DNA of 43,516 nucleotides from Anaerolineales bacterium (GTDB lineage: Bacteria; Chloroflexota; Anaerolineae; Anaerolineales; E44-bin32): NCBI GenBank assembly GCA_041554155.1, contig JBFFMI010000003.1, forward strand, positions 1-43,516, read 5' to 3'. Below the pieces are notes generated by a model. That model saw nothing but the letters and a program-made list of their open reading frames with translations. It ran no database searches and was not told the origin of the DNA. Both the position numbers and the translations under genes were made by a program. Below, one piece after another: positions 20,163 through 24,375 of the stretch (the first letter of the stretch is position 1; each line of letters begins with the position of its first letter).

Positions 20163-21263
20163 TTAATCCCGGGGCCAGATGGTTCCAGCTCGCACTACCT
20201 GGCCGGCAGGCACATCAGCTTTTATGACCGCGGAATTCCCAATCATAGCGCCCGACCCGATGTTGACATGCAGGTTGATGGTAACACCCATACCAACCAG
20301 GACGCTTTCCCCTATCGTCACATTGCCTGCCAGGAGCGCGCCTGGGGCGATATTCACGTAATCGGCCAGGTTACAGTCGTGCGAAACAACGGCAGCGGTG
20401 TTGACTATCACGCCCAATCCAAGCCGCACCTCACTACCAATATATGCATGGGGAAATGTTTGAACCCCAGCTTCCAAGCTTACGCTTGGCTCCACCCAGG
20501 CGCTTGGGTGGATCAAATTCGGGAGCTCGAAACCGTTCACTTGAAGCCGCTCGAACACCTTAGTACGGCTGCTCATATCTCCGATGCCCCCGACCGCGTT
20601 CACCGCCTGGCGAATCCCTTGCTCGCTCAAACTGCGCAGCTCTGCAGCCCCGCCAACCACAGGGATCCCCATGATCTCCACACCCACCGTCAAACCATCA
20701 TCGATGATCCCCGCAATGCGGTATGAACCAATTGCATGGATGAGATCGATCAGCGCCTTGCCATGCCCTCCCCCGCCATAAATAATCAGAGCGGAGCTGT
20801 CGAGCGGTCGATCTGATTTCACCACCCCCCCACCTCCATCGCTGATCATGCGTAGAACTTCCGCTTCGGTGATGAGTATATCTTGTGGAAGATCTTCCAG
20901 ATCTAGTCCACTGGCCCTGGCGAGCTCAAGCGCCGGTCTTGTGATGCGCATGGTTTGAGGTAGTGCTTCCCTATCGGAAACCAGGTCTTCCTCGGGCTCT
21001 TCAGGTGGAACCCAGCTCGCATCATCGGCCAGCCAGCACAATCGCTCTCCAGCCCGGAGCTTATCGCCCTTTGCTTTGCCTAAGGCGACAACATACCCTT
21101 CCCGCTCGGCTGATATCTCGTGGGTTGACTTGGTCGTTTCCACTGTACACAGAAGCTCGCCAGCCGCCAGTTTCTGTCCTTCTGCTACATGGACTTCGAC
21201 AATCTGGACCTCAGGTTCGTTGGGGTTGAGCAGAGGAACAATCACCGCAAAGGCCTCAGACAT
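20163..21263 (-). CDS. Fusion of lipoyl domain, peripheral subunit-binding-like domain and PglD/NeuD-type sugar acyltransferase (hexapeptide beta-helix)
   Basis: N-terminal 'VAEGQKLAAGELLCTVETTKSTHEISAEREG' (lipoyl fold, Lys45); acidic linker; 'ITRPALELARASGLDLEDL' (PSBD-like); 'LIIYGGGGHG', 'LIHPSA', 'NTAAVVSHDC' and hexapeptide repeats. ATG 21263 after GGAG. Confidence 0.85.
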   Translation of the reverse strand: MSEAFAVIVPLLNPNEPEVQIVEVHVAEGQKLAAGELLCTVETTKSTHEISAEREGYVVALGKAKGDKLRAGERLCWLADDASWVPPEEPEEDLVSDREALPQTMRITRPALELARASGLDLEDLPQDILITEAEVLRMISDGGGGVVKSDRPLDSSALIIYGGGGHGKALIDLIHAIGSYRIAGIIDDGLTVGVEIMGIPVVGGAAELRSLSEQGIRQAVNAVGGIGDMSSRTKVFERLQVNGFELPNLIHPSAWVEPSVSLEAGVQTFPHAYIGSEVRLGLGVIVNTAAVVSHDCNLADYVNIAPGALLAGNVTIGESVLVGMGVTINLHVNIGSGAMIGNSAVIKADVPAGQVVRAGTIWPRD

Positions 21264-21350
21264 GGGTTTCTCCATTATCGAGTTCAAACATAAGATCAGT
21301 TCCAACCATCGTCGCTTGAAGGCCAAGACCCACAGCAGGCACCCATGCGA

Positions 21351-22346
21351 TCATCTTTCCATCATCCCGAGCGCCAATTCGACAATCTCATCCACCTGTG
21401 GAAGAACTTCCTGCTCGAGCGTTGCCGCTGCTGGGACGGGCATATTTCTGGCTGCCGCTCGCCCAAATCTCACGTTGGAACGAATATTTTCAAGTGACCT
21501 TGCGGCAAGTTCGGCACTCCAACCCAAATTCAAACTACCTTCTTCAATGGCCAGTATCTTTCCTGTCTTGCGCACGCTCTCATAGAATGGTTCGAGATCG
21601 AAGGGGCTTAATTGAGTCGGAACCACCAATTCGACGAAGATCTCTTTTTCATAAGCCAATTTATGCATCACCTCACGTCCAATTTCCGCCATATAGCCAT
21701 AAGCTGCTAGCGTGAGATCAGCACGTGGCGCACCAGCAATTCCCACTATCGACCATGGATAAGCCCCGCTTACTTTGTGCATCTCAAACTCGCGCCCGGG
21801 AGAGAAGGTAGAAAGCGGATACAGCAGCTTATGCTCAACCAGCAACACAGGATCATCGTCTTCAAGGATAGCCTGGATGAGCACCTGCTCAGGTGCAACA
21901 TAGGTATTGAGTGCCAGGACACGCAAACCGGCTGCGCCCAAGAAGTGCTTCTCCAGCGTTTGGCTGTGTGTCGGTCCGTATCCCCGGTATCCCCCCATTG
22001 GAGTCCTCACGACCAGCGGCACTCGAACCTGATCATTGCTCATCCATCGAAATTTTGCAGCGTGGTTGATGAGTTGATCGGCAGCCAGGGTGAGGAAATC
22101 CCCGAACATAATCTCCACAATAGGGCGCAAACCCCGTAGCGCCATCCCGACTCCCAAGCCTACAATTCCAGCTTCGGATACCGGGGTGGTTATTACCCTC
22201 TCTGGATAATCGGTGGACAATCCCCTGGCCACTTTAAAGGCACCCCCATAGGGATCGAGAATATCTTCTCCTAACAGATATACGTCAGCGGATTTCTCCA
22301 GGCAGTGGCGTAAACCAGCATTGATCCGATCCAGGAATGTCGTCAT
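21351..22346 (-). CDS. 2-oxoacid dehydrogenase E1 beta subunit (PdhB/AcoB-like)
   Basis: 'LLGEDI', 'TPVSEAGIVG..GMALRGLRPIVEIMFGDF', 'DQLIN', 'HSQ', 'DPVLLVEHKLLY'; ATGA overlap with E1 alpha. Confidence 0.92.
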   Translation of the reverse strand: MTTFLDRINAGLRHCLEKSADVYLLGEDILDPYGGAFKVARGLSTDYPERVITTPVSEAGIVGLGVGMALRGLRPIVEIMFGDFLTLAADQLINHAAKFRWMSNDQVRVPLVVRTPMGGYRGYGPTHSQTLEKHFLGAAGLRVLALNTYVAPEQVLIQAILEDDDPVLLVEHKLLYPLSTFSPGREFEMHKVSGAYPWSIVGIAGAPRADLTLAAYGYMAEIGREVMHKLAYEKEIFVELVVPTQLSPFDLEPFYESVRKTGKILAIEEGSLNLGWSAELAARSLENIRSNVRFGRAAARNMPVPAAATLEQEVLPQVDEIVELALGMMER

Positions 22347-23263
22347 GCGCTGGCACCCAGGGCTGGCGTGATGTCGCTTGGGGTCGCCATCGGATCGCTT
22401 TGAGCCTGTTCAAAAGCCGCGTCCACCTCGGCTGTTACCTCGGTTTCTACATCATCGATCTCACCCGTCTTTACCGCTGAGCGGATCATGATCAACGGAT
22501 CGCGTTGTTGGAAATGTGCGATTTCATCTGGGTCACGCACATCATCCCCTTTGGAGTGGGGTGCAAAGCGGTAGGTATCAATGATCAGGGCTTGTGGACC
22601 CTTTCCCTTGCGAACGTGAGAGACCAAGCGCTCCGTTTCTTCCCCGATCTGTTGCACCTCGGTGCTGTCGATGTGTTTGGCAGTGATCCCAAAAGCCCCA
22701 AACCGTGCGGCGATATCTCCGGCCAGGTTCAAGGCGATCGGCGTGCTTTGTGCATAGCGGTTGTTTTCACAGATAAACAGTACTGGCAAGTTCCAGAGAG
22801 AGGCCATATTCAGGCTCTCATAAACGACCCCTTCTCCAAGCGTGCCATCACCCATGAAGGCAAATACGACTGCCCCGGGCTCCCTCTCCCTCAGCGCAAA
22901 CGCCATCCCTGTTGCAAGTGGGATGGTGCCTCCCAGTATTCCATTCGCATAAAAGTTGCGCCACTGGATATGCTGGCTTCCACCTCTTCCCCCACAAACG
23001 CCCGTGGAACGGCCCATCAGCTCAGCCGCCAGAGCATGCATTGAGCCGCCATAGGCAAGAAAGTGACCATGACAGCGGTGGTTGCTCACGACGATGTCGC
23101 TTTTGTCCAACCAGTTAAGCACCCCTACGGCGTTCGCTTCCTGCCCGATATAGGTATGCGTGGTCCCATAAAATAGCCCGCGCGGGAAGAGTTCGAGGAC
23201 TTTCTCCTCAAAACGGCGAATTCGTAGCATGGCACGGTAGGAATCAGCAGGAGTGGACTTCAT
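22343..23263 (-). CDS. ThDP-dependent dehydrogenase E1 alpha subunit (PdhA/AcoA-like)
   Basis: 'IRRFEE', 'HTYIGQEA', 'HRCHGH', 'GRGGSQH', ThDP motif 'GDG...ENN', 'TYRFAPHSKGD'. Confidence 0.93.
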   Translation of the reverse strand: MKSTPADSYRAMLRIRRFEEKVLELFPRGLFYGTTHTYIGQEANAVGVLNWLDKSDIVVSNHRCHGHFLAYGGSMHALAAELMGRSTGVCGGRGGSQHIQWRNFYANGILGGTIPLATGMAFALREREPGAVVFAFMGDGTLGEGVVYESLNMASLWNLPVLFICENNRYAQSTPIALNLAGDIAARFGAFGITAKHIDSTEVQQIGEETERLVSHVRKGKGPQALIIDTYRFAPHSKGDDVRDPDEIAHFQQRDPLIMIRSAVKTGEIDDVETEVTAEVDAAFEQAQSDPMATPSDITPALGASA

Positions 23264-23312: not shown

Positions 23313-23321
23313 ATCATACCA
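23313..23321 (-). promoter_or_regulatory. Extended -10 promoter for the E1alpha-E1beta-fusion-DegT unit
   Basis: TGgTATGAT on the minus strand, about 50 nt upstream of the E1 alpha ATG and just past a terminator-like hairpin. Confidence 0.5.
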
Positions 23322-23339
23322 CTGCTTCCATAATGAATA

Positions 23340-23369
23340 CGAGCCGCCCCCCAACATTGGGAGCGGCTC
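23340..23369 (-). terminator. Hairpin, probable terminator after the CC1-like gene
   Basis: CGAGCCGC...GCGGCTCG stem with inner CCCAA/TTGGG; AT-rich flanks. Confidence 0.65.
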
Positions 23370-23399
23370 GTTTAACCCGATTTTTGGGTTTACGTCCAA

Positions 23400-23585
23400 T
23401 TACATATTGGCTTCGCCGAAGTCCTTACCAACAATGCGCCAAGCTTCGTGTGTTCCAGCTGGTGCCTTGGTTACGGCAAAGAACTGCACACGACCCTTGT
23501 CGGATACTTTCTTTTCAATCCGCCAATCAGCAGATTTGAACTTGGTCTTGGACTTCACATCATAAAATTCAAGGGTTTCTTTCAT
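23400..23585 (-). CDS. Small basic protein resembling crenarchaeal chromatin protein CC1
   Basis: 61 aa MKETLEFYDVKSKTKFKS...KGRVQFFAVTKAPAGTHEAWRIVGK; AGGAGG RBS; own promoter and terminator. The L-x-F-Y-D-x-K...F-A-V-x-K...R-x-x-G-K pattern matches CC1 as I recall it. Confidence 0.7.
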   Translation of the reverse strand: MKETLEFYDVKSKTKFKSADWRIEKKVSDKGRVQFFAVTKAPAGTHEAWRIVGKDFGEANM

Positions 23586-23625
23586 CACGATCCTCCTAGT
23601 AAATTTTTGGCACTTATTGTGCACC

Positions 23626-23654
23626 ATGCTACCCGTTCTCACAGGTTTGTGCAA
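23626..23654 (-). promoter_or_regulatory. Sigma70-type promoter for the CC1-like gene
   Basis: TTGCAC-N17-TAGCAT on the minus strand, about 40 nt upstream of the ATG. Confidence 0.5.
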
Positions 23655-23694: not shown

Positions 23695-24375
23695 CTATGG
23701 CGTCGATTCTCCTTCGGTCCCCATAAATTCTTCTGCTGTTGCATGACCGGGCTGGCTGATGCCTTCTCGAGTCAATACCTTCCAGAGCGTCATCAGGAGG
23801 ATCTTGAGATCAAGCCAGAATGACCAGTGGTCGACATACCAGACGTCAAACTTGAATTTGTCCTCCCATGTCAGCGCATTACGCCCATTGACTTGAGCCC
23901 AGCCTGTTATCCCTGGTAGGACTTCGTGGCGCCGAGCCTGCTCTGGAGAGTAGCGTTCTAGGTACTGCACCAGCAAGGGGCGTGGTCCAACCAGGCTCAT
24001 CTCCCCGCGCAGCACGTTGAACAACTCCGGGAGCTCATCCAGGCTGAAAGACCGTAAAAACCGCCCCAATCTGCCCAATCTCTGGGCATCGGGCAGGTAG
24101 GCCCCGGTTTCATCCCGGGCATCCATCATGCTGCGAAATTTGTAAACAGCGAAGAGCTGGCCATGGTATCCCGGCCTCACCTGGCTGAAAAGAACCGGAC
24201 TCCCGAGCTTCCAGCGCACCAAAACAGCGATGATCAACAGGAGCGGGCTTGCCAAAACCAGCCCGGGCAGGGTTATTAGGAGATCGAAAAGCCGCTTTGA
24301 CAGCGGGATTCCAGCGGGGAATACACCGGTTTTTACCTTACGCGCTGATTCTGGAGGGTGACCGGGGTTAGGCAT
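23695..24375 (-). CDS. Monotopic phosphoglycosyltransferase (PglC/EpsL-like, polyprenyl-P sugar-1-P transferase)
   Basis: 'KRLFD', 'KFRSM', 'SLDELPELFNVLRGEMSLVGPRP', 'PGITGWAQVNGRN', 'DVWYV'. Confidence 0.92.
   Translation of the reverse strand: MPNPGHPPESARKVKTGVFPAGIPLSKRLFDLLITLPGLVLASPLLLIIAVLVRWKLGSPVLFSQVRPGYHGQLFAVYKFRSMMDARDETGAYLPDAQRLGRLGRFLRSFSLDELPELFNVLRGEMSLVGPRPLLVQYLERYSPEQARRHEVLPGITGWAQVNGRNALTWEDKFKFDVWYVDHWSFWLDLKILLMTLWKVLTREGISQPGHATAEEFMGTEGESTP

Follow-up and report, generated by a model that had tools for sequence, protein, structure and literature searches.

Gene content and organisation of the locus

The window, meaning the whole analysed stretch of 43,516 nucleotides from an Anaerolineales bacterium, encodes a small basic protein of 61 amino acids between genes of a glycan locus. 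The gene, its neighbours and the elements recognised around it all lie on the minus strand and are as follows.

22343..23263, minus strand: 2-oxoacid dehydrogenase E1 alpha gene, the downstream neighbour (PF00676, E 3e-55)
23313..23321, minus strand: possible extended -10 element TGGTATGAT, read from the sequence, role putative
23339..23371, minus strand: predicted intrinsic terminator with a 13-bp GC-rich stem and a weak T tail
23400..23585, minus strand: gene for a small basic protein of the CC1 family, 61 aa (translation, match to a CC1-only profile, pN below pS)
23592..23597, minus strand: Shine-Dalgarno sequence AGGAGG, 6 nt 5' of the ATG, read from the sequence
23626..23654, minus strand: predicted promoter TTGCAC-N17-TAGCAT, 40 nt 5' of the ATG, recognised by motif conservation
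23695..24375, minus strand: pglC-type phosphoglycosyl transferase gene, the upstream neighbour (PF02397, E 3e-65)

The reading frame starts with the ATG at 23585 and ends with the TAA at 23400. The product, of 7.0 kDa and pI 9.57, contains 10 lysines and 3 arginines (net charge about +3.6) and no cysteine, in agreement with the original prediction of a lysine-rich protein preceded by a strong AGGAGG; the upstream GGAGG is kept in 23/23 loci of the genus. In a listing of longest open reading frames the gene is hidden, as had been recognised at the outset, in a frame of 114 codons that begins at 23744, within the 3' end of pglC. This longer frame was rejected as an artefact, because homologs centre on a length of 60 aa (44 of 45 close homologs have 56-64 aa) and because the ribosome-binding site and the promoter are placed at the start of the shorter frame. 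Comparison of 23 genus alleles in 253 pairs gave a mean pN of 0.11, far under the mean pS of 0.72 (a value near saturation), indicating that the gene is under purifying selection. The alternative that the frame is spurious, or that the 114-aa frame is the true product, could draw on the longest-ORF call and on the lack of any Pfam or NCBIfam match. It has a negligible probability in view of the 1733 clusters that match the family profile, the homolog lengths, the low pN and the position of the expression signals, and may be taken as already refuted by conservation.

The predicted promoter matches the sigma-70 consensus at only 7/12 positions, and a scan with the strict consensus reported no promoter on the minus strand in this region. 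A motif of the form TTGC-N2, a spacer of 16-18 nt and TA-N2-AT is present 40-58 nt before the start in 23/23 genus loci. Since the pattern was derived from these loci, a fair test is offered by the loci of other genera, 9/15 of which contain it, versus 23/1667 control upstream regions of the same genome. Of the -35/-10 elements first proposed for the gene, it is thus the conserved motif that stands, and not a strict sigma-70 match. The downstream hairpin was borne out: its 13-bp stem folds with a z of -5.0, none of 200 shuffles was equally stable, and a similar GC-rich hairpin lies 3' of the gene in the genus loci. An element of the TGGTATGAT type is also present past the hairpin in several genus loci, and it is possible that it would restart transcription for E1-alpha beyond the hairpin.

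The conserved promoter motif and the hairpin together predict that the gene forms a single-gene transcription unit, the usual arrangement for known nucleoid-associated proteins according to parts of PMC7613761. Eight of 18 listed RNA-library runs were consulted. Two runs, from different studies, contained a near-identical contig that does not reach beyond the predicted unit (spanning 23410-23606 and 23377-23583). Three runs had assembled contigs of the neighbouring genes only, and three runs of one study had dispersed contigs from relatives; two of these contigs extend past the predicted unit. These data are contigs, from which gene expression cannot be ranked, and therefore lend the single-gene unit a weak hint at most.

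The genes downstream form a set of their own (20163-23263, minus strand), comprising E1-alpha, E1-beta and a lipoyl domain fused to a sugar acetyltransferase of the NeuD/PglD type. The fusion protein matches PF00364, PF17836 and a hexapeptide model, with TIGR03570 above its cut-off, and the order E1-alpha, E1-beta, lipoyl is also seen elsewhere in the family and in other families of Anaerolineales. This domain composition suggests that acetyl groups taken from pyruvate may be handed by the lipoyl arm directly to an amino sugar, bypassing acetyl-CoA.

Homology to the archaeal chromatin protein CC1

CC1 (crenarchaeal chromatin protein 1) was reportedly described by Luo et al. in 2007 from Thermoproteus and Pyrobaculum, and is said to have had the older name paREP4. 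The resemblance of the 61-aa protein to CC1, first noticed from a sequence pattern that agrees with the Pyrobaculum proteins retrieved here, was examined with a profile made solely of CC1 sequences (23 from Thermoprotei; four divergent rows of 27 were excluded). Of the 53,499 segments in a six-frame translation of the source genome, only the 61-aa gene matched significantly (E 4.3e-9, the next being 0.22). The protein scored 39.5 bits, its reversed sequence 0.6 bits, and the best of 5000 shuffles (4846 scored) 12.3 bits. In the reverse direction, a profile of 33 rows from Anaerolineales only detected 7/7 proteins named CC1 by NCBI at 30.6-36.7 bits, the best of 2100 shuffles reaching 11.4 bits. 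Because these reciprocal tests hold both ways against shuffle controls, homology of the 61-aa protein to CC1 is shown, and the profile match anticipated by the original prediction is thereby established. A profile comparison at 99.7% probability was set aside, since its CC1-side alignment also contained unnamed members of the family.

The 1733 clusters were matched by a profile of 44 close relatives of the 61-aa protein. A scan of species genomes with the family motif returned 41 loci, six of them in Pyrobaculum, with products of 55-57 aa for which the NCBI cluster names are 'DNA-binding protein CC1' or paREP4; three of the four Pyrobaculum clusters looked up bear one of these names. With a profile lacking any named Pyrobaculum row, homologs were found in 29/120 Thermoprotei genomes (best E about 1e-18). 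Thermoprotei carriers also have, beside typical copies, a longer and divergent CC1 paralog of 66-73 aa with another C-terminus (L112, L140). Searches of Pfam, NCBIfam and PDB sequences returned no match for the 61-aa protein or its profile, and none for CC1 itself.

Pairwise identity between the 61-aa protein and CC1 proteins is 29-35%. The two are similar in size, basic and homologous over their whole length, share the L-x-FYD-x-K, F, FAV and P-x-G motifs, and agree in the order of the five strands of their models. Besides its bacterial host, the 61-aa protein differs from CC1 in its lower net charge (+3.6, A1 median +4.6, versus +6.5 to +9.6, median about +8.5, for CC1), in a neutral C-terminal helix where CC1 has a Lys-rich tail, in a HEAWR motif common to Woesearchaeota homologs, and in being present in one copy per genome in Anaerolineales, whereas Thermoprotei carriers mostly have 2-4 matches.

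Distribution and origin of the gene

The 61-aa gene is present, as a single copy, in 80/98 genomes of one Anaerolineales family, including 33/37 near-complete genomes and 16/24 genera; one draw from the genus of the source genome found it in 22/24 genomes. The Anaerolineales relatives encode proteins 60-95% identical in the same gene order. Some of the absences may be assembly gaps, because in one family genome scored as lacking the gene (G909) a contig (L200:1-90) opens with its apparent last codons, followed by the hairpin before E1-alpha. Outside the family, the gene was found in 0/16 other families of Anaerolineales, in 0/150 genomes of a class sample and in 0/300 genomes of a sample of the phylum Chloroflexota.

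The nearest relatives outside this group are proteins of Woesearchaeota/Nanoarchaeota, with 37/56 and 32/59 identical residues (54-66%). Within the phylum to which a Woesearchaeota record belongs, 18/251 genomes have a match, a count that includes the centre genome and a DUF5679 match. A further bacterial copy occurs in Ca. Euphemobacter, among bacterial genes and beside an outer-membrane protein gene, and one homolog lies near a primase-helicase gene. Two records labelled 'Methanosarcinales' were set aside as probably mis-binned; in one (L081) the gene order is that of Anaerolineales and the protein is identical, and the protein of the other (L064) is that of a genome of the Woesearchaeota phylum (L148).

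Carriage by phages is scarce. No match was found in 50,697 GenBank phage records, and three scans of IMG/VR yielded one true contig with a homolog. Three weak IMG/VR matches were rejected, being located in a long unrelated frame.

Domains of the CC1 family were also observed at the N-terminus of Xre/MbcA/ParS antitoxins (L028:1471-2579, L029, P0136, P0143, P0163, P0295), adjoined in L028 by the gene of a RES-domain toxin. Second copies in two genus genomes are fusions of this kind.

Across the family the gene lies at a conserved position between pglC and E1-alpha, with pglC upstream in 22/22 other genus loci and 14/15 loci of other genera, and E1-alpha downstream in 19/22 and 15/15, respectively. 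Eight genomes of other families have a close E1-alpha, and in four of these pglC is found within 1.5 kb of it. In three of the four the two genes abut, their aligned ends being at most about 80 nt apart; in the fourth they are separated by 1 kb, and this gap contains no homolog. Because pglC and E1-alpha abut in three outgroup genomes, one insertion early in the family is indicated, and the simplest reading of the gene orders would be a single early insertion followed by vertical descent. The gene had first been described as an autonomous unit interrupting the order of its neighbours. The stand-alone unit and the insertion remain, the latter not as a local interruption, the arrangement being ancestral to the family.

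The conserved position could also mean that the protein serves the surrounding glycan locus as a local regulator or accessory factor. There is only a very slight chance of this, as the same glycan genes occur without the 61-aa gene in other families (the three genomes in which they abut) and in one family genome, which has a 270-nt gap between pglC and E1-alpha. The gene has, moreover, its own predicted promoter and terminator, and its archaeal and other bacterial homologs adjoin unrelated genes, namely those for eIF-1A, Kae1/TsaD, a GTPase and an outer-membrane protein. The glycan locus is likely to be only the landing site of the gene.

In phylogenetic trees the Anaerolineales rows formed one group among the rows of the Woesearchaeota phylum, apart from Thermoprotei; an AU test on 35 rows and 61 columns did not reject monophyly of the Woesearchaeota-phylum rows (p-AU 0.379). 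The gene was probably gained once, by transfer from a pool in which DPANN archaea and mobile elements also take part. CC1 is described as archaeal in parts of PMC4200833 and PMC7325993, and as Crenarchaeota-specific in the latter. The homology to a protein described from Crenarchaea, as originally stated, is upheld, and the limitation to Crenarchaea is not, the nearest relatives being those of Woesearchaeota/Nanoarchaeota. A wider archaeal range is already on record, because Table S1 of Hocher et al., which covers archaeal genomes only and mentions CC1 230 times, includes Thaumarchaeota and GW2011-AR archaea among 32 rows of its CC1 entries. No paper reporting a bacterial CC1 was found in full-text searches of openly accessible articles.

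Predicted fold and comparison with Cren7 and DUF5679

In the AlphaFold2 model of the 61-aa protein (pLDDT 94.9) five strands are followed by a C-terminal helix; in the CC1 model the same strands recur and the helix is absent. In a full structural alignment over 48,161 chains the top match was Cren7 on dsDNA (Z 5.9, rmsd 2.4, 52/53 residues), followed by a second-best match at Z 3.4. The alignment tool gives Z 8 as a guide value, and a lower Z can reflect a common arrangement. The Cren7 match, at a moderate Z of 5.9, is below this value, but it extends over the entire domain and is well separated from the other matches. Other comparisons with Cren7 were negative: Foldseek against PDB gave no match at E <= 0.001, a profile-profile comparison with five Cren7-family rows was not significant (E 0.28), and the 61-aa protein was not matched in a search with PF11520 (Cren7). 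The similarity to Cren7, a comparison proposed at the outset, appears in the full structural alignment, and neither in the Foldseek search nor in the profile comparison.

Cren7 is described in passages of PMC5906684 as restricted, together with Sul7, to crenarchaea and bathyarchaea, and as derived from zinc ribbons after cysteine loss (Kaur et al.). Like the 61-aa protein it is small and basic, and it is a five-stranded barrel. It differs in sequence (8% identity), and its conserved W-x-L-x-P-x-G strand and loop are absent from the 61-aa protein. On the basis of the model, the latter is predicted to form, without zinc, a five-stranded barrel of the Cren7 type followed by a short C-terminal helix.

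The connection with DUF5679 (PF18930), a four-cysteine zinc ribbon, came as a language-model lead at 0.86-0.87. The wide family profile matched one four-Cys DUF5679 protein (E 1.3e-4), and D9/S12 and A41/G44 of the 61-aa protein align by eye with the two Cys knuckles of DUF5679. The 61-aa protein lacks these two CxxC knuckles, its columns holding D/S and A/G. A profile-profile comparison with DUF5679 was not significant (probability 0.2%), and a search with PF18930 found no match in the 61-aa protein. A shared zinc-ribbon origin of the CC1 family, Cren7 and DUF5679 would be plausible. The host has a DUF5679 domain of its own, in a long frame on another contig (G000:C63:1982-2101). More generally, this domain was seen in 53/60 Anaerolineae genomes tested (including L035-L063). 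In most cases it forms the N-terminal end of a frame of about 800 aa, which runs on into a VIVESPAKA motif that we take to be the start of topoisomerase I.

Among viral protein models (BFVD), the model of the 61-aa protein matches uncharacterised proteins of Marseillevirus LCMAC (A0A481YWF2, A0A481YYB0, A0A481YUN9 and A0A481YX05) with TM values of 0.64-0.73 and a best E of 0.005; weak matches to phage zinc-ribbon proteins were also observed.

Candidate nucleoid role

CC1 is characterised in parts of PMC4200833, PMC2275093 and PMC3189178 as a 6-kDa, basic, monomeric and abundant protein whose affinities for ssDNA and dsDNA are similar; its binding to ssDNA is cooperative, and a function in ssDNA protection has been proposed. 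Its role in the cell is described as unsettled in parts of the first two of these sources. The 61-aa protein very probably binds nucleic acid, and the preferred reading, to which a probability of about 0.6 is assigned, is that the bacterial CC1-family protein is a small, sequence-independent DNA-coating nucleoid protein.

The residues conserved in the family are K11, K13, K15, K26 and R50, together with F7, F16, F36, A37, V38 and W/Y49. Cren7 contacts DNA via strands 3-5 and the loop between strands 3 and 4, according to part of PMC2275093. By analogy, a monomer of the 61-aa protein would lie on DNA with the three-stranded sheet of strands 3-5 and with the basic loop joining strands 3 and 4. 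K11, K13, K15, K26 and R50 would hold the DNA backbone, and the exposed hydrophobic residues F36 and V38 would contact bases, as does the equivalent face in Cren7. On a mapping made by motif alignment, not by coordinates, F36, V38 and R50 would correspond to positions on the binding face of Cren7. Like CC1, the 61-aa protein would bind both single- and double-stranded DNA.

A role in the nucleoid is supported by the retention of a single copy in 80/98 genomes, by purifying selection, by the scarcity of HU and by the fusions to helix-turn-helix antitoxins. It is weakened by the lower charge relative to CC1, by the loss of the Lys-rich tail and by the three of eight RNA-library runs in which only neighbouring genes were assembled.

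HU (PF00216), which with IHF is the main nucleoid protein of bacteria, was not found in the source genome, which is 84% complete. Among the 98 family genomes HU is present in 14 and absent from 84, and it is missing from 27/35 other Anaerolineae genomes tested, taken from samples in which the 61-aa gene was not found. In a class-wide search HU/IHF was detected in 9/59 genomes, versus 9/14 control genomes by the same search. Replacement of HU by complementary distribution was rejected, HU occurring in 13/80 family genomes with the gene vs 1/18 without it; one-for-one replacement is unsupported, because HU is absent also from most relatives that lack the gene and co-occurs with it in 13 genomes. 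Any likeness to HU/IHF would be a possible overlap in role only; sequence and fold are unrelated, and the distributions are not complementary. Transfer of HU is known in the other direction, from bacteria to Thermoplasmatales, as noted in part of PMC7613761. YbaB/EbfC is present in 5/5 family genomes tested.

If the protein acted mainly on single strands, it would be an RNA chaperone or an ssDNA protector rather than a packager of the chromosome. Such a function would accord with the cooperative binding of CC1 to ssDNA (dsDNA being bound as well) and the ssDNA protection proposed for it, with the aromatic residues kept in the family (F7, Y8, F16, W21, F36 and W49) and with the modest charge of the 61-aa protein. 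It is regarded as unlikely, since the model is closest in fold to a chromatin protein of dsDNA. Canonical SSB, moreover, was matched at least twice in every one of five family genomes tested (5/5), which leaves no SSB gap to fill. Replacement of SSB was rejected on the same finding.

SH3-like barrels often bind peptides, as stated in part of PMC5906684, and the domain might instead be a protein-binding module unrelated to nucleic acids, for example a toxin-antitoxin or stress partner. The fusion to antitoxins beside a RES toxin gene would fit such a function, as would the neutral or acidic character of a few family members, the lowest pI being 4.8. This is improbable, however, for a clear homolog of CC1, a protein shown to bind DNA, in a wide family with a median pI of 9.8.

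Implications

By its reciprocal profile matches, the 61-aa protein is a genuine homolog of CC1 that has become fixed in a single bacterial family, a known protein family in a new domain of life. Its fixation as a single copy extends the CC1/Cren7-like chromatin fold, as predicted, to Bacteria. The match of its model to Cren7, itself a prediction, offers CC1 a testable structural home as well. The broadest scenario is tentative and rather doubtful. An archaeal-type chromatin protein of the Cren7 fold would have reached the ancestor of the family from DPANN archaea or from their mobile elements, and would have become a main nucleoid protein in bacteria from which HU had mostly been lost; CC1, Cren7 and DUF5679 would then make up one zinc-ribbon-derived superfamily across both prokaryotic domains. 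The 61-aa protein is not a general answer to the Anaerolineae without HU, because most HU-less relatives do not have the gene. With most of the Anaerolineae sampled having no detectable HU, it is a candidate that would be easy to express and assay.
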